Shown piece after piece: positions 2,970 through 59,218 of a DNA stretch of 64,000 bases (within the stretch, counting starts at the first letter, position 1; every line of letters starts with the position of its first letter). The DNA comes from Alphaproteobacteria bacterium UBA6149 (GTDB lineage Bacteria; Pseudomonadota; Alphaproteobacteria; Rickettsiales; UBA998). Where the stretch lies: the NCBI GenBank assembly GCA_002423155.1, contig DIUV01000045.1, positions 3,276-67,275 of the forward strand, in the 5' to 3' direction. The notes beneath the pieces were generated by a model. The model had not been told where the DNA came from. It saw nothing but the letters and a program-made list of their open reading frames with translations, and did no database searches. The position numbers and the translations under genes were made by a program.

Positions 2970-3692
2970 TTATTCTTCATCACTTACTATAGTACATCTT
3001 CCGCGTCCGCAAATAACTTTGGCGAATTCACCCGGCTCATGGATAGAAAACACCAAAACAGGTATGTTATTCTCGCGCGCCAAGGCAAAAGCAGCAGTGT
3101 CCATAACTTTCAAATCTTGCCGTAAAACTTCATTATAAGTCAGATGCTCATAACGCTCCGCATCAGAATATTTATTAGGATCCGCCGTATAAACCCCATC
3201 CACTTGCGTGCCCTTAAGCATCGCATCACAACCCAACTCACTAGCACGCAATGCGGCAGCAGTGTCAGTAGTAAAAAACGGATTACCCGTACCAGCAGCA
3301 CAAATCACCACCCGACCCCGTTCTAAATGGCGAATAGCGCGGCGGCGCACATACGGCTCACACACTTCCATCATGTGAATAGCCGAAAGCACGCGCGTAT
3401 CCACCCCCATAACATCCAAAGTATTCTGAATTGCCAAGGCATTCAGCACGGTTGCCAACATCCCCATATAATCCGCACTCGAACGCTCCATCCCCCGTGC
3501 CGCCGCGGAAATGCCGCGATATATATTACCACCGCCCACCACCACGCAAACTTCCACCCCCATCTGCACCACTGCCTTAATATCCTGACAAATACGGGAA
3601 ATAACCTCCCCATCCTGCCCGTAAGGTTTATCCCCCATCAAGGCTTCACCAGATACTTTTAAAAGCACACGTTTATATAGGGGCACGGTCAT
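2970..3692 (-). CDS. pyrH: UMP kinase
   Basis: [44 protein letters not shown]. 240 aa. Confidence 0.93.
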
Positions 3693-3820
3693 GGCACAAT
3701 TTCTTCTATTTTGGTTGAATAGCGTTTTTCTAAAGCAAAACCGCCTTTATCGCAAATAGATTATTGCGCCAAATTGCACCATCCGCAAATAAAAAATATA
3801 TTCTACCCAACCGACACTGC

Positions 3821-3980
3821 TTCCCCCTCTCCCTCTGGGAGAGGGACGGGGTGAGGGAAGCCTAACTAAAATACAAAGCTTTCTGTCGCTATAATATGTT
3901 GATATTAAAACAACAAAATAGCAAAAAAATTTTATGGATAGTTCCCTCACCCCATCCCTCTCCCAGAGGGAGAGGGAGTT
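3821..3980. repeat. Family-A double-hairpin palindromic element (intergenic copy)
   Basis: The left arm (3821-3860, ttccccctctccctctgggagagggacggggtgagggaag) and the right arm (3942-3978) are near-perfect reverse complements. The same arms recur at 17014-17123, with a half copy at 32833-32857. Confidence 0.85.
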
Positions 3981-4184
3981 AGCCCTCATTTTTTGATATT
4001 TATTGGATAAATAAAAATCTGCCTGGTGGTAAGAAGTATATTTACAAAAATTTATTTACTGTTAAAAAGGGCAGGTTATTTTTTATCTCGTCTTTGGACA
4101 GGTATATATAGCACAAACGTCGCAATTATTATTGCGATACTTTTTTTAAGTTGCGAAGAGCAACTATTTTATCCAGGTGATCTT

Positions 4185-4571
4185 ATGAAAACATTTTTTT
4201 TACCATTATTGTTGGTGGTTTTTTTGACTGGTTGCAAAAAAGAAATTGATGGCCCCAATGTGTGCCCCGTATTAAATAAAGTGTACGATTCAACAATCGC
4301 CGCTTTTTTATTACCAGACATCCTGAAAACTGATATTTTGCGACCTGAGCAGCCTTTTCCTCTACTAAAAGAAGTTGCCGCTTCTTTAAAGAACGACAAA
4401 AAAGCAATCTCGAAAAAATGCGCAGAAAATGATGGCGAGTTCGGAGCCAACACTCTGTATTCACTTCTCAATTTGGAAGTGGAAAACTCCGTGAGCGATA
4501 CGATTCGCCACGATACCGCTACTTTGTTGGGAAATGAAGCAGCAAATTACGCCAAAAACAGGGCTAAATAA
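4185..4571 (+). CDS. Hypothetical lipoprotein
   Basis: The internal ATG at 4185 gives MKTFFLPLLLVVFLTGCKKE, which is a signal peptide plus a lipobox (LTGC). The GTG-extended ORF from 4026 is less plausible. Function unknown. Confidence 0.55.
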   Translation: MKTFFLPLLLVVFLTGCKKEIDGPNVCPVLNKVYDSTIAAFLLPDILKTDILRPEQPFPLLKEVAASLKNDKKAISKKCAENDGEFGANTLYSLLNLEVENSVSDTIRHDTATLLGNEAANYAKNRAK

Positions 4572-51170: not shown

Positions 51171-51209
51171 TGGGAGAGTATCTGGCTGGGAGAGTATCTG
51201 GCTGGGAGA
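51171..51209. repeat. 16-bp tandem duplication that includes the 3' end of tRNA-Gln
   Basis: tgggagagtatctggc (51171-86), tgggagagtatctggc (51187-202), tgggaga (51203-09). The last unit is the tRNA acceptor strand. Confidence 0.85.
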
Positions 51210-51272
51210 CTAGGATTCGAACCTAGATTGACGGAGTCAGAGTCCGCTGTCCTACCATTAGACGATCTCCCA
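51199..51272 (-). tRNA. tRNA-Gln (anticodon CUG), CCA encoded
   Basis: A manual cloverleaf on the minus strand fits: TGGGAGA acceptor, D arm GTCT/GGAC, anticodon arm GCGGA-CTCTGAC-TCCGT, T arm CTAGG-TTCGAAT-CCTAG, then TCTCCCA-G-CCA. 74 nt. Confidence 0.9.
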
Positions 51273-51333: not shown

Positions 51334-51522
51334 GGCAATTTCACCAATCGTTAATTTTGTCTTTTTGCAATAAAACTCTCTATTGTCATGCAGCACGTAG
51401 AGCGGCATCCATGCAAAACCATTGGCTTATCCGCTAGTTGATAGGCATGGATACCGCCCTGCGGCGGCATGACAATAGATATTTTAGTGAAAAAAGACAA
51501 AATTAACGATTGGTGAAATCGC
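51334..51522. repeat. Family-B long-form nested palindromic element (copy B8)
   Basis: ggcaatttcaccaatcgttaattttgtctttttg ... caaaattaacgattggtgaaatcgc. The core is gtcatgcagcacgtagagcggcatccatgc / ggcatggataccgccctgcggcggcatgac. Confidence 0.85.
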
Positions 51523-51631
51523 ACTGTAGTTTTTGCGAGATATAAAATTCATAATAAAATACCTAATTGCATCAAGCTACATCTCCTGTTACTTATCCAA
51601 CAAGTTTGCAAAAAAATTGAAAGGAACTATT

Positions 51632-53213: not shown

Positions 53214-55013
53214 ATGCACTACAATCGTACTAAAAACTTATTAATTGCCACCTCATTATGCATTGGGGGAGCAATCATGCTTTCTAATTCCGCACAAGCA
53301 CGCATTCGTTTGCTGCCTAAACAACCAAGCATAGAAGTGCATTTAGAAGTTTTGGATAATTTAAGTGCAGAATTTTATCCACCAGCTTTTGAAAAAACTC
53401 CGTTGGTAAAACCATTGGCAAAACCATCATCGGCAAACGCAAATAAAGCAACCGAGCCAGCAAAAGCTGCGCCGATTGCTACTCCTGTAACCGCAACACC
53501 TCCTGCAGATAAAACTAACGCAAGCATAGAAAAAGGTCTGCCTGCTATTATTAGCGCACCTCCTGCGTTTAAAAGTACTAAACCATCGACAACTAAAACC
53601 GAAAAAGCCGAAGAATTTAAACCCATAAAGCCAAAAATAGAAAAGCCGAAGGAAAAAAGCCGAAAACCAGCCAAAAAAACAGAGCCGAAAACTCCCCCTA
53701 AAAAGCTGGAAAAACTGCCCGAGCCTGAGCTAAAACCTTCTGATTTAGATGATTTTTCCAAACTTCCAGCGATGAAACCACGCGAGGAAGCTCCAGAGGA
53801 AGTTAAAGTAGAAGACAAAAAAGCGCCTGTGCTTATTCCATTGCCAGAAAAAGCTAAAAAAGCCCCAGTAATAAAACCAGAAGTAATGGAACCAACATTA
53901 CCAGCAATGCCCGAAGCAAAAAAGGAATCATTGCCTGCGCTGCCGCCTGTTCCTGCTTTAAGAGTAAAACCAGCTGAACTACCAGCAAAATTACCAGCAG
54001 CACCAATAGCGCCCACCGAACAAGCCGCGCCTTTGCCGCCAATTTCAGCCGATGAATTGCCAGCCCCTCCACCAGCTGATGCAGCAAAACCAGAAGCCCC
54101 CAAAGCAATAGAAGATAAAAAATCAGAAGGTTGGTTTGGAAAAATCAAATCCAAAATGTTTAGTGGAGATAAACCAGAAACAATAGAGCCAAAAACTGAA
54201 GATAAAGCATTACCAAAGCCGCCTAGCGCTGATGATATGCCGCCAATTCCTGCTGTTCCTGCTAACTTGCCAACGGCGGCGGATAAATCTGGCTTGCCAG
54301 AATTACCCACAGGAAATGCTCCCAATATGGAACTTCCCGAAATGCCCGCATTACCCGTTATGCCTGCGGATAAAGCTCCGTCTGGTAATGCAAGCAATAA
54401 CGCGGCTTTACCTGATCTGCCAGGATTACCATCCAAAACCCCTCCCGCTCCATTGCCTGATGCAGCGAAGAAGGCGGTTGATACGGCAGTAACCCCAGTT
54501 GCCGAAACGCAATTACCAATGTTGGACGCAAAAACTCCCCCCAGCAAATTACCAACCCCAGACTTGCCAACACCAGCATTACCAAGTTTGAGCCCAGAAC
54601 CTACACTACCGCCGATAAAAGAAGCGGTGAAAAAACCTGAGCCACAAAAAACAGAGTCCCCAAAGCCAGAGCAAGTAGAACCCGCTCCAGCTAAATCAAC
54701 CAGTGATAATGTATCATTAAGTATAGCTTATGGTGCAAATGAAACCGACGTACCTGCCAGCGTACAAGGTAAACTAAAAGAACTAGCACAAAAACTAATT
54801 AGCGATAAAAAATTGACAGTTAGCGTTATTTCTTACGCCGCAGGAACCGAAGATCAAGCAAGCATTGCTCGCCGCGTATCACTTTCTCGAGCATTAGCAG
54901 TGCGTGCATTTATTATTGATCTGGGCGTAGATAATTTACGCATTAATGTTCAAGCACAGGGCAATAAAAATCCCAGCGGCAACCCAGAACGTACCGATAT
55001 TGTTATAAATTAG
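53214..55013 (+). CDS. Pro/Ala/Lys-rich envelope protein with C-terminal OmpA/MotB-like domain
   Basis: An N-terminal signal/anchor (LLIATSLCIGGAIMLSNSAQA), about 450 aa of P/A/K/E-rich low complexity, and a C-terminal peptidoglycan-binding-like domain (SIAYGANETDVPA...ISYAAGTEDQASIARRVSLSRALAVRAFIIDLGV). Confidence 0.7.
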   Translation: MHYNRTKNLLIATSLCIGGAIMLSNSAQARIRLLPKQPSIEVHLEVLDNLSAEFYPPAFEKTPLVKPLAKPSSANANKATEPAKAAPIATPVTATPPADKTNASIEKGLPAIISAPPAFKSTKPSTTKTEKAEEFKPIKPKIEKPKEKSRKPAKKTEPKTPPKKLEKLPEPELKPSDLDDFSKLPAMKPREEAPEEVKVEDKKAPVLIPLPEKAKKAPVIKPEVMEPTLPAMPEAKKESLPALPPVPALRVKPAELPAKLPAAPIAPTEQAAPLPPISADELPAPPPADAAKPEAPKAIEDKKSEGWFGKIKSKMFSGDKPETIEPKTEDKALPKPPSADDMPPIPAVPANLPTAADKSGLPELPTGNAPNMELPEMPALPVMPADKAPSGNASNNAALPDLPGLPSKTPPAPLPDAAKKAVDTAVTPVAETQLPMLDAKTPPSKLPTPDLPTPALPSLSPEPTLPPIKEAVKKPEPQKTESPKPEQVEPAPAKSTSDNVSLSIAYGANETDVPASVQGKLKELAQKLISDKKLTVSVISYAAGTEDQASIARRVSLSRALAVRAFIIDLGVDNLRINVQAQGNKNPSGNPERTDIVIN

Positions 55014-56135: not shown

Positions 56136-57308
56136 ATGTTAGAAAAAAGCAAGGTTTCTGCGCTAATCGTTGCGGCAGGTAGTGGTAGTCGTTATGTTTC
56201 GACTACCCCAAAACAATATGAAAAATTGCGCGGAAAAACCGTATTATCTATGGTTATACAAACATTTATGAATCACCCCCAAATAGATGAGGTTTGGGTA
56301 GTTATTGGACAGGGGCATGCTGAATTATTTGCGCAAAATTTTAATGATTTGTCTGTAAAAACTGTGCAAGGTGGGGCAACGCGGCAAGATTCTGTGCGCT
56401 TAGGTCTATCGGCAATGCAACATTCAAGCACAGATTTTGTACTGGTGCATGATGCTGCGCGTGCTTTGGTAGATGCAGAGTTAATTAGTCGGGTGATTAA
56501 TCAACTGCAATTAGGTGCTGCGGCGGTAATTCCCGCTTTGCCAGTGGTGGATAGCTTAAAAAATACAAAAGACAATATATTAACTAATAATTTGCCTCGC
56601 GAGGGGGTAGTGGCAGCACAAACTCCTCAAGGATTTATCTTTGCGGAGTTATTATCGGCGCATCAACAAGCAAGTGCAGGGCATAATGATGATGCTTCTT
56701 TGATGGAAGAATTAGGAATAAAAGTACATTGGGTCATGGGTAGCCGCGCAAATATGAAATTAACTACACCAGAAGATAAGAAATTTATGGAAAATATATT
56801 GAATAGCTGGGAAACTCGCGTAGGGAATGGTTTTGATGTGCACCGCCTAGTTGCCTTTGCTGATGATGTTTTGCCCGTTGATAAATTTATTATGTTAGGG
56901 GGGGTGAAAATTCCTCATACGCATTATTTAGAAGGTCATTCTGATGCAGATGTAGTTTTACATGCGGTGGTGGATGCTATTCTAGGAACCATTGCTGCTG
57001 GAGATATAGGACAACATTTTCCTCCGAGCGATGCTAGCTTAAAGGGCATGGATTCCGCGCTATTTGTAGCTAAAGCATTGGAAATGCTAAAGAACAACGG
57101 AGGAGAAATTGTTAATTTAGATGTGACTATCATTGGTGAGAAACCAAAAATTTCTCCTTATGCAGCGCAAATAAAAAATCGTTTGGCAGAAATATTAGAA
57201 TGTAGTGCTGGACGAATTAATATTAAGGCTACCACCACTGAGCGATTAGGTTTTACAGGACGTGGTGAAGGATTAGCCGCGCAAGCGATTATTGCTTGCA
57301 AGTTTTAA
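56136..57308 (+). CDS. ispDF: Bifunctional MEP cytidylyltransferase / MEcPP synthase
   Basis: The N-terminal IspD part is ALIVAAGSGSRY. The C-terminal IspF part is GNGFDVHRL, GHSDADVVLHA, and the TTTERLGFTGRGEG pattern. This fusion is typical of Alphaproteobacteria. Confidence 0.92.
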   Translation: MLEKSKVSALIVAAGSGSRYVSTTPKQYEKLRGKTVLSMVIQTFMNHPQIDEVWVVIGQGHAELFAQNFNDLSVKTVQGGATRQDSVRLGLSAMQHSSTDFVLVHDAARALVDAELISRVINQLQLGAAAVIPALPVVDSLKNTKDNILTNNLPREGVVAAQTPQGFIFAELLSAHQQASAGHNDDASLMEELGIKVHWVMGSRANMKLTTPEDKKFMENILNSWETRVGNGFDVHRLVAFADDVLPVDKFIMLGGVKIPHTHYLEGHSDADVVLHAVVDAILGTIAAGDIGQHFPPSDASLKGMDSALFVAKALEMLKNNGGEIVNLDVTIIGEKPKISPYAAQIKNRLAEILECSAGRINIKATTTERLGFTGRGEGLAAQAIIACKF

Positions 57309-57433: not shown

Positions 57434-57904
57434 ATGCAAAAACATAAATTAAATAATTGGGATATTTGGTTAGTAACTTGGTTTGGTGCTGGCCTATCCC
57501 CTAAGGCTCCGGGAACTATGGGTAGTTTGGCAGGCTTGCCTTTTGCCGTGGGGATTTTTTATTTTGCTGGTTGGCAGGGGCTTTTATTGGCGGCTATATT
57601 GGTTACTATTTTAGGGGTTATGTGCTCGCATCATTATATGCAAAGAATTGGCAAAACTGAAGACCCACAAGAAATTGTTATAGACGAAGTGGCAGGTCTA
57701 TGGATTGCTTTACTGCCCATGCCTTTAGATGTTCCTCATTATATGCTGGCATTTTTGCTTTTTCGGCTGTTTGACATCACCAAACCCTCCTTTATTGGCT
57801 GGATTGACCGCGAGGTAAAAGGAGCAAATGGAGTAATGTTCGACGATGTCGCCGCAGGTATAGTTGCAGCAATCATTGGCTATGTGGTTACTATCTATTA
57901 TTAG
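57434..57904 (+). CDS. pgpA: Phosphatidylglycerophosphatase A
   Basis: APGTMGSLAGLPFA, IDEVAGLWIAL, FRLFDITKP, MFDDVAAG. Confidence 0.88.
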   Translation: MQKHKLNNWDIWLVTWFGAGLSPKAPGTMGSLAGLPFAVGIFYFAGWQGLLLAAILVTILGVMCSHHYMQRIGKTEDPQEIVIDEVAGLWIALLPMPLDVPHYMLAFLLFRLFDITKPSFIGWIDREVKGANGVMFDDVAAGIVAAIIGYVVTIYY

Positions 57905-57918
57905 ATTTTATAGTCTGG

Positions 57919-58074
57919 CTAAACAGCAGTCGCCATTTTGCTGATTTCTTGCTCCACCAAGCGTTCTACTGTTTGCGCAAGATTGGCTTCCATCCAGTCT
58001 TTTAGCATGGGTCGTAATAACTCCAGCATTATATCTTCTGCGGTAGCGCCAGAGCGTAAGATTGGAGTTTCCAT
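57919..58074 (-). CDS. Unannotated 51-codon ORF encoding a stand-alone PopZ C-terminal-domain paralogue
   Basis: My translation of the minus strand is METPILRSGATAEDIMLELLRPMLKDWMEANLAQTVERLVEQEISKMATAV*. The ATG starts 1 nt after the popZ stop (TAA-T-ATG). About half of roughly 42 aligned residues are identical to the popZ C-terminus (TTVEDLIIEFMRPMLQEWVNENLPQTVERIVKQEIRKLSESA). Confidence 0.6.
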   Translation of the reverse strand: METPILRSGATAEDIMLELLRPMLKDWMEANLAQTVERLVEQEISKMATAV

Positions 58075-58075
58075 A

Positions 58076-58897
58076 TTATGCACTTTCAGATAATTTACGA
58101 ATTTCTTGTTTAACTATACGTTCTACGGTTTGGGGGAGATTTTCATTTACCCATTCTTGCAGCATTGGGCGCATGAATTCGATGATTAAATCTTCCACCG
58201 TGGTGCTCGATACATTCGCATTTTTTTCCACTGGTTTAGGATGGCGATTCGCCGCTTTTTGTGCCAATGCCCGGAAGGCAGAAGTAGCACCACTGGCAGC
58301 ATTAGCCGAAAGTAGGCGATCAATATCACCCAATAATTCTGATTTTGAGGGTTGTTCAGCAGGTGTAGATGCTTCAATGCTGATTACATTATCTTCTATA
58401 ACTGAGCTGGACTTTTTATTATTCATATAATTATCAATTTGTTGCATGGAAGAAACTTCTAAAGTTTCCATTTCTAAAACCGCTTCATTAGAAGAATCAT
58501 CCGATATAGTGGAATCTTCATCAACATTATCATCATTGCTATTATTATTATTGCTCTGTGCAATTTCTACTTCTTCATTAGTATCAGCTACGATAGGATT
58601 ATTATCGTTAAAAGAAAAATCATTATCCGCAGCCGTTAGAATAGCAGTAGATAATACATCACTATTTTGAGATTGGTTATCTTGAGGTGGGGTGAAATCT
58701 TCAATTATATCTGATAGTTCCAATATATCTGCACTATCAGATTTAGTTGAAGCTTCAGCCACATCATCTTTTGAATCAGCTGCTTTTATTGGGGATGCAA
58801 TATTTGGGGTAGTTTCCTCATCGGCAATTATGCGTTTGATTGATTGGAGTATTTCCTCCATCGACTGATCTTGCGCCGCGCCATTACTGCTTGCCAT
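58076..58897 (-). CDS. popZ: Pole-organizing protein PopZ (DUF2497)
   Basis: The N-terminus (QDQSMEEILQSIKRIIADEE), the long acidic low-complexity middle, and the conserved C-terminus (VEDLIIEFMRPMLQEWVNENLPQTVERIVKQEIRKL) together mirror Caulobacter PopZ architecture. Confidence 0.85.
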   Translation of the reverse strand: MASSNGAAQDQSMEEILQSIKRIIADEETTPNIASPIKAADSKDDVAEASTKSDSADILELSDIIEDFTPPQDNQSQNSDVLSTAILTAADNDFSFNDNNPIVADTNEEVEIAQSNNNNSNDDNVDEDSTISDDSSNEAVLEMETLEVSSMQQIDNYMNNKKSSSVIEDNVISIEASTPAEQPSKSELLGDIDRLLSANAASGATSAFRALAQKAANRHPKPVEKNANVSSTTVEDLIIEFMRPMLQEWVNENLPQTVERIVKQEIRKLSESA

Positions 58898-58985
58898 AAT
58901 ACCTAACCCCTATAGTAGTTTTTGTGCAATGCATATAAAACCGCAAGTAACCGCAGAAGTAAAGCAAAAATATGCTTTTTATCAA

Positions 58986-59174
58986 GGCGATTTCCCCAAT
59001 CGTTAATTTTGTCTTTTTGTAATAAAACTCTCCATTGTCATGCAGCACGAAGAGCGGCATCCATGCCAAACCATGGGCTTATCCGCTAGTTGATAGGCAT
59101 GGATACCGTCCTACGACGGTATGACAAGAGATATTTTAGTGAAAAAATGTCAAATTAACGATTGGTGAAATCGC
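58986..59174. repeat. Family-B long-form nested palindromic element (copy B9)
   Basis: ggcgatttccccaatcgttaattttgtctttttg ... gtcaaattaacgattggtgaaatcgcc. It is nearly identical to B8. Confidence 0.85.
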
Positions 59175-59218
59175 CCTGTGCTTTTTATGCATTAGTTCCG
59201 CACTGGATATTATCTAAA

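Follow-up and report, generated by a model that had tools for sequence, protein, structure and literature searches.

The window analysed here is a 64,000-nucleotide stretch of contig DIUV01000045.1 from Alphaproteobacteria bacterium UBA6149, and our subject is a 51-codon open reading frame (ORF), termed mini-popZ and its product mini, that lies on the minus strand directly behind a full-length popZ gene. A sequence-only reading of the window had placed this ORF one nucleotide after the popZ stop codon (TAA-T-ATG), and both its coordinates and its peptide proved to be exactly as quoted. Between the popZ TAA (58078..58076) and the mini ATG, which begins at 58074, there is one base, a T at 58075; the ORF runs to a TAG stop codon at 57921..57919, encodes METPILRSGATAEDIMLELLRPMLKDWMEANLAQTVERLVEQEISKMATAV and occupies a different frame from popZ. 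The tolC gene is located upstream of popZ, and a convergent pgpA gene ends at 57904, 14 bases past the mini stop codon. On the one diverged relative, a 1,994-bp JGI contig (L001), a 51-amino-acid (aa) mini immediately follows a 260-aa PopZ sharing 66% identity with the PopZ of the window. The features of the pair are listed below, with the evidence for each in brackets.

58076..58897 (stop codon included), minus strand: popZ, full length, 273 aa (DUF2497 at 71.7 bits; NCBIfam PopZ_fam at 94.5 bits; motif QSMEEILQSIKRIIA; TolC-popZ synteny).
58814..58885, minus strand: predicted PopZ helix 1 (H1), residues 5-28, which binds clients in Caulobacter and is missing from mini (AlphaFold2; invariant columns Q11-A25).
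58346..58813, minus strand: predicted disordered linker of PopZ, residues 29-184, absent from mini (AlphaFold2 predicted local distance difference test score, pLDDT, below 50; composition).
58250..58345, minus strand: predicted PopZ helix 2 (H2), residues 185-216, absent from mini (AlphaFold2 helices 185-195 and 198-216; equivalent to DUF2497 positions 1-31).
58079..58249, minus strand: PopZ loop (residues 217-233, 58199-58249, FRSG motif lost) and helices 3 and 4 (H3H4, residues 234-273), the putative paralogous counterpart of mini (BLASTP, AlphaFold2, column comparison).
58075..58078, minus strand: junction of popZ stop and mini start, TAA-T-ATG (differing frames; no Shine-Dalgarno match before the mini ATG).
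57919..58074, minus strand: mini-popZ, 51 aa, 5.8 kDa, isoelectric point 4.5, a stand-alone PopZ loop and H3H4 module (ORF, Pfam and NCBIfam matches, ortholog in L001).
58042..58074, minus strand: mini residues 1-11, METPILRSGAT, predicted to be unstructured, with the L-R-S-G loop motif (low AlphaFold2 pLDDT, no helix).
57925..58041, minus strand: mini residues 12-50, predicted to form a single long helix equivalent to PopZ H3H4, with P22, W27 and M28 (AlphaFold2, column conservation).

The sequence-only reading had called the small gene hidden, which holds for the first-stage ORF track, from which it is absent, but not for public annotation: NCBI, JGI, ENA and Logan records include mini among their gene calls, in 51-aa and 54-aa versions, with PF10691 precomputed. 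The 54-aa version found in some gene calls begins at a GTG at 58083, and because this codon is not kept in L001, where it reads GCG, the ATG at 58074 was taken as the start. An antisense ORF on the plus strand (57938..58093) is open in both lineages; it was rejected, as it has no family match, while the Pfam match and a third-position pattern of nucleotide differences belong to the sense frame.

Mini matches the Pfam family DUF2497 (PF10691) at 57.8 bits (E 1.5e-15), well above the gathering cut-off of 27 bits, and the match is confined to profile positions 32-74 of 75, the H3H4 half; the neighbouring PopZ is matched over positions 1-74 at 71.7 bits. Against NCBIfam NF052660 (PopZ_fam), mini scores 51.3 bits over positions 125-166 of 167, below the curated 125-bit cut-off for whole proteins, and the full-length neighbour likewise falls short of it at 94.5 bits, because its linker is long and atypical. 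By BLASTP, mini aligns without gaps to PopZ residues 230-270 with 22/41 positions identical (54%; 80% positives, E 2e-15), in agreement with the earlier manual estimate of about half, and the DNA of the aligned stretch is only 65% identical, with a proportion of synonymous differences (pS) of 0.77, so that the duplication is, as had been claimed, not recent. Mini keeps P22, W27 and M28 (L28 in L001), which on our alignment to the Caulobacter sequence correspond to P146, W151 and L152 of Caulobacter PopZ.

AlphaFold2, run on mini as a monomer with a 48-sequence alignment, predicts floppy residues 1-11 followed by one long helix at residues 12-50 (mean pLDDT 85.7); for the PopZ of the window the predicted order is H1 (residues 5-28), a disordered region (29-184), H2 (185-216), a loop and one long helix (234-272). 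A PDB sequence search with PopZ returned no solved relative. The PopZ N-terminus carries the conserved family motif QSMEEILQSIKRIIA. When the elements of PopZ architecture were looked for in mini, the loop and H3H4 were found, and H1 (conserved motif MEEILxSI+RII), the acidic linker and H2 were not. On these models, mini is loop plus H3H4 and nothing else of PopZ. The sequence-only reading, which had described a stand-alone PopZ oligomerisation domain devoid of the client-binding N-terminus and acidic linker, was right about the missing H1 and linker and about the loop and H3H4 part, but not about the domain as a whole, as H2 is absent too. By homology mini is assigned to the PopZ/DUF2497 family, yet it falls outside the architectural definition of PopZ. 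The PopZ linker itself, the most diverged part of the protein between the window and L001, spans 156 aa, is rich in S, D and N, and contains 22% acidic residues and just 4.5% Pro, compared with ~29% acidic residues and ~23% Pro in the linkers of Caulobacterales PopZ (PMC9512792).

Comparison of the window with L001 provided evidence that the small ORF is under selection. The two mini peptides are 80% identical (40/50) and their DNA 72% identical, with start and stop codons conserved, and the 44 nucleotide differences fall as 11, 2 and 31 at codon positions 1, 2 and 3 (binomial P 5e-7). The proportion of nonsynonymous differences (pN) is 0.11 and pS is 0.87, giving a pN/pS of 0.13 with synonymous sites near saturation; in the tolC background of the same pair of lineages, pN is 0.054 and pS is 0.68. 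Codons that encode an identical amino acid but differ in sequence make up similar shares in mini (20/37) and TolC (103/230), and mini has therefore followed the synonymous rate of the genome in its vertical divergence, with its protein kept conserved. When 43 substitutions were placed at random in 200,000 trials, a mean of 24 and a maximum of 35 of the 50 amino acids remained identical, no trial reached the observed 40, and 75% of trials produced a stop codon. An unconserved ORF with a neutral substitution pattern, the outcome that the sequence-only reading had named as counting against it, is thus rejected by this one diverged relative, and its statement that the frame has been kept open as a separate gene stands.

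The junction between the two genes adds to this comparison. It reads TAA-T-ATG in the window and TAA-AA-ATG in L001, so that an indel has shifted both the spacing and the relative frame; across it, the PopZ C-terminus (...KLSESA and stop) and the mini N-terminus (METPILRSG) are both intact, which argues against readthrough, programmed frameshifting or an assembly artefact. The window allele is present in three independent assemblies (the window, L002 and L004), and a variant with a 92% identical PopZ (L003) has the same mini start before its contig ends. From these substitution patterns, the 51-codon ORF is very probably a real protein-coding gene kept by selection.

The origin of mini was examined through residues shared with PopZ. 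Mini is 52-56% similar to the domain of its neighbour and 57-64% similar to the PopZ of Rickettsiales-labelled metagenome-assembled genomes (MAGs), and these values are so nearly equal that similarity alone does not settle where it came from. The two copies in this lineage have several states in common that are rare elsewhere: Q-T before VER (QTVE occurs in 3/84 other domains) and T at PopZ position 257, where at least 45/47 related PopZ have I, L, M or V. Both copies also have Q at column 41 and a hydrophobic residue at column 16, which is mostly R or K in others. Horizontal acquisition of mini, which might be suggested by its being no closer to its neighbour than to MAG PopZ, was rejected in view of the shared rare residues and of a synonymous divergence that matches the TolC background. 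The evidence supports mini being an old partial paralogue of the adjacent popZ that arose by duplication within the lineage. Most simply, the 3' end of popZ (loop, H3H4 and stop codon) would have been duplicated in tandem and an ATG gained afterwards; a duplication of this kind, with the stop codon included, would put the copy exactly at the observed place.

Divergence after the duplication was asymmetric. The loop motif F-R-S-G is nearly invariant in 47 related PopZ (F in 41, R in 46, S in 43 and G in 46), and it is the full-length PopZ of this lineage that lacks it, with N-V-S-S in the window and I-I-S-K in L001; mini keeps L-R-S-G at the loop-motif position, a state ancestral for related PopZ. 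Similarly, the PopZ of this lineage has replaced the conserved K/R at 247 with Q and the invariant L250 with V, while mini keeps K and M/L. Mini in turn has replaced the common Pro of 'NLP' (P32; P in 78/84 other domains) with A or S, and between the window and L001 the last 42 residues of PopZ are 100% identical, versus 80% for mini. The Caulobacter loop (MPKDGR) has nothing of FRSG except the aligned Gly.

To place the arrangement in a wider context, protein, genome and metagenome collections were searched. A word-indexed protein search with mini returned only two clusters, both from this lineage (the window peptide and the 80%-identical 51-aa peptide). Of 1.84 billion representative proteins searched exhaustively with HMMER, 5,901 were retrieved as DUF2497 proteins. 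The mini cluster is isolated among them at 129 bits; the matches that follow, at 77 bits or less, are C-termini from full-length PopZ of the ordinary kind, and this profile search gave no sign of a wider mini family. When 80 diverse alphaproteobacterial popZ loci (L009-L088; over 571 loci matched) were searched in six frames with hmmsearch, none had another DUF2497 copy within 3 kb of popZ, and the tandem configuration was seen only in the lineage of the window. Scans of genome contigs with two PopZ queries and of metagenome contigs with two mini queries gave no confirmed relatives, and a degenerate DNA pattern for W-x3-NL-x-QTVER matched 23 loci in metagenome contigs, of which only L103 is a true PopZ, single and ordinary. 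In literature searches on PopZ with DUF2497 and PopZ with paralog, no description of a tandem popZ/mini-popZ gene was found, which, with the 80 single-copy loci, agrees with the earlier remark that no description of the arrangement was known. The popZ/mini-popZ arrangement is rare.

Short DUF2497 proteins of 57-120 aa in the databases were considered as further candidates for mini genes. Three on long contigs were checked (L005, L006 and L007), and each was rejected as a single popZ split by frameshifts at the canonical PCMT-TolC-popZ-valS locus; most of the remainder are on contigs of ~2 kb or less, and a few more on long contigs, such as P0304, P0313 and P0324, fell outside this check. The 73-77-aa 'DUF2497 / PopZ' entries at these loci (L005, ~3350-4222; L006, ~3600-4234; L007, ~3650-4222) are C-terminal pieces of popZ, with the N-terminal MDEILSSIRQII lying upstream, out of frame or beyond out-of-frame stretches, and valS is also fragmented in L005 and L006. 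At least some short PopZ entries in the databases are therefore artefacts and not mini genes.

The surroundings of the gene pair are in part conserved and in part peculiar to this lineage. PCMT-TolC-popZ synteny holds here as in most other alphaproteobacterial loci, with TolC-popZ in 71/80 of them, and the nearest TolC proteins are those of Alphaproteobacteria bacterium UBA998 (55%) and of Rickettsiales-labelled MAGs (47-48%). Downstream of popZ and mini, the lineage of the window has a convergent pgpA-ispDF pair (57434-57904 and 56136-57308). Neither gene occurs within 3 kb of popZ at any of the 80 other loci, and valS lies directly downstream of popZ in L006 and L007, with valS fragments ~1.8 kb downstream in L005; rearrangement has therefore taken place downstream of popZ in the lineage of the window.

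A scan for promoters and terminators found nothing exceeding shuffle expectation and no terminator between popZ and mini. At a point 20 nt past the pgpA stop codon, the 3' end of the mini ORF contains a terminator-like hairpin with a T-rich tail (57924-57943, plus strand), which is not conserved in L001 and comes from this same scan, overall not above shuffle expectation; it might terminate pgpA. In the tolC-popZ spacer, ~86 nt upstream of the popZ ATG, lies an element of ~196 bp resembling a miniature inverted-repeat transposable element (MITE; 58983-59178), with 45-nt terminal inverted repeats that are 80% complementary. A second copy of ~190 bp (51334-51523) adjoins a tRNA-Gln gene (51199-51272), and the window holds four matches to the terminal repeats versus none expected by chance. 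The spacer in L001 is only 118 bp long and has no MITE-like element, and the insertion is therefore recent; it could affect transcription of popZ and mini. Elsewhere in the window, 53214-55013 (plus strand) encodes an unusual, extended peptidoglycan-anchoring protein of 599 aa, in which the N-terminus is signal-like and a very long low-complexity region rich in Pro, Lys, Ala and Glu precedes a C-terminal OmpA-family domain.

Work on Caulobacter PopZ offers a basis for considering what mini might do. There, H3H4 (residues 135-177) forms a trimeric coiled coil with W151 and L152 in its core, P146 is required for the step from trimer to hexamer, and the loop (129-134) is essential for hexamers, its deletion trapping PopZ as trimers (Scholl et al., 2026, PMC12999525). 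The core segment for hexamer formation, residues 129-171, suffices for hexamers, and both this segment and the isolated oligomerisation domain (OD) self-assemble (PMC12999525). H2 (102-128) and the last six residues (L6) are required for filaments; without H2, PopZ remains a hexamer and, under standard conditions, fails to condense, whereas H1 with the intrinsically disordered region (H1-IDR) inhibits condensation (PMC12999525). Low levels of Delta-L6 PopZ, even without H1, disrupt the wild-type condensate in trans (PMC12999525), and changing the valency of the OD, for example by repeating H3H4 (pentavalent OD), shifts material properties and fitness (PMC9512792). In the parts of PMC12999525 and PMC9512792 available to us, no experiment was found in which a free loop and H3H4 peptide was present alongside wild-type PopZ.

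Against this background, the reading that we favour, and hold to be somewhat probable, is that mini is made together with PopZ, joins H3H4 bundles and changes the valency of the polar assembly. Mini would be co-transcribed with popZ and translated by termination-reinitiation coupling to it, a route suggested by the stop-to-start distance of 1-2 nt and the missing Shine-Dalgarno sequence. The peptide would then enter PopZ H3H4 bundles as a subunit that lacks H2, linker and H1 and brings its coiled-coil and loop contacts, and the mixed bundles could alter valency, filament length or growth, material state and the density of client sites in the polar PopZ assembly. Mini would in effect amount to a bacterial 'microProtein' that targets the scaffold from which it derives. 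It is plausible that, as the sequence-only reading proposed, it caps, tunes or nucleates PopZ assembly; this gains plausibility from Caulobacter, where assembly-defective PopZ variants expressed in trans disturb wild-type condensates. The effect could go in either direction, since fewer H2 per bundle would weaken filament and condensate contacts and fewer repulsive H1-IDR chains would promote condensation.

Several points weigh against this reading. No Shine-Dalgarno match precedes the mini ATG in either the window or L001, while popZ itself has AGGT. The evidence for conservation comes from one diverged ortholog, and the lineage amounts to three variants among ~15 billion proteins. The helices of mini and PopZ are only ~54% identical, and V250 and N251 of PopZ stand opposite M/L and E in mini; the copies could thus have diverged toward separate homo-oligomers. 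Assembly-defective PopZ is toxic in trans in Caulobacter, and a simple dominant-negative role would therefore need tight dosing. Finally, the roles of loop, H2 and H3H4 are taken from Caulobacter PopZ, whose loop sequence differs.

Other accounts of the gene pair were weighed against valency tuning by a co-made subunit. One, which we regard as possible but unlikely, is a division of labour in which PopZ lost the hexamer loop motif and mini kept it, so that mixed bundles are the unit of the scaffold and mini is an obligate subunit and not a brake; the locus would, at the same low probability, encode a natural split scaffold, with PopZ dependent on, or tuned by, a co-translated loop and H3H4 subunit and mixed bundles as its building block. 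The near-invariance of FRSG in the 47 PopZ, its loss from the PopZ of this lineage and the L-R-S-G of mini all fit such a split, as do K247Q and L250V in PopZ where mini keeps K and M/L, and the complete identity of the last 42 PopZ residues across lineages points to strong constraint on the derived sequence. The Caulobacter loop has no FRSG beyond its Gly, however, so that the function of the motif is deduced from its position, and mini, without H2, cannot restore filament or condensate contacts; the trapped trimers produced by loop deletion in Caulobacter (PMC12999525) again favour the split. A slightly less likely account has mini as an independent small coiled-coil protein that forms homo-trimers or homo-hexamers and functions without mixing with PopZ, for example with another partner. 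The self-assembly of the isolated OD and of residues 129-171 in Caulobacter (PMC12999525) speaks for this account, and mini evolves faster than the PopZ C-terminus (80% versus 100% identity) and has changes of its own such as P32 to A/S, at a position that is P in 78/84 other domains; yet the tight coupling of popZ stop and mini start was kept across the junction indel, which suggests co-expression, the residues of the family's core interface are retained, and the gene context points to no other partner.

Two further accounts deny mini a role as a protein in its own right, and we consider both very improbable. That it is a decaying duplicated fragment with a fortuitously open frame would suit its shortness, its lack of a Shine-Dalgarno sequence and its restriction to one lineage, but not a pN/pS of 0.13, third-position placement of 31/44 differences, a level of conservation reached in 0/200,000 random trials, conserved start and stop codons, or a Pfam score above the gathering threshold. 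That no separate protein exists, either because a PopZ with duplicated H3H4 (a natural 'pentavalent' PopZ) was split by a frameshift or because programmed frameshifting joins the two ORFs, would recall the frameshift artefacts behind the short DUF2497 gene calls in L005-L007 and the engineered PopZ with repeated H3H4, which exists and alters the material state (PMC9512792). All five assemblies (the window and L001-L004), however, have an in-frame TAA after ...KLSESA and an ATG, and to fuse the ORFs the frame would have to shift by +1 in the window and by -1 (or +2) in L001, with no slippery sequence shared between them.

Compared with known systems, mini is homologous to the C-terminal H3H4 of PopZ from Caulobacter and other Alphaproteobacteria and keeps the invariant Pro, Trp and following hydrophobic residue; it differs in having one of the four helical or linker modules and in being a separate 51-aa polypeptide encoded after a complete popZ. 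In Bacillus subtilis, the ~40-50-aa peptide MciZ caps FtsZ filaments and tunes polymer assembly at sub-stoichiometric levels. MciZ is not homologous to its target, whereas mini appears paralogous to its presumed target and shares its putative operon. Engineered PopZ fragments (OD/PopTag, Delta-H2, Delta-L6, Delta-H1-Delta-L6 and pentavalent OD; PMC12999525, PMC9512792) are laboratory versions of the same idea; they are artificial and were used in Caulobacter, E. coli or human cells, whereas mini has evolved naturally, apparently under purifying selection. Eukaryotic microProteins such as plant LITTLE ZIPPER and miP1a/b are single-domain proteins smaller than 20 kDa that derive from larger multidomain proteins and modulate their relatives through heteromers (PMC9638782). 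Mini conforms to the size and descent parts of this definition, with 5.8 kDa, half a DUF2497 domain and paralogy with popZ; microProteins are, however, described for eukaryotic transcription factors and similar proteins (PMC9638782), whereas the presumed target of mini would be a bacterial condensate or filament scaffold.

Among bacterial scaffolds of condensates and filaments, PopZ has been studied best, and its oligomerisation domain serves as an engineering tag (PopTag). The fitness of Caulobacter hinges on material properties staying within narrow limits, which are determined by OD valency and linker (PMC9512792). The lineage that carries mini is very narrow and uncultured, and the evidence for selection, although good, comes from one diverged ortholog. 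The 51-aa peptide is nonetheless a ready reagent for asking if PopZ assemblies are capped, diluted or nucleated by H3H4 modules in free form. If mini does join PopZ bundles, this lineage would represent a natural experiment in tuning valency in trans with a copy of the trimer/hexamer core, and the 'microProtein' principle would extend to bacterial scaffolds. If PopZ and mini instead form a scaffold split between two genes, this would be the first case in nature of a bacterial condensate scaffold having given rise to its own trans-acting regulator or subunit.

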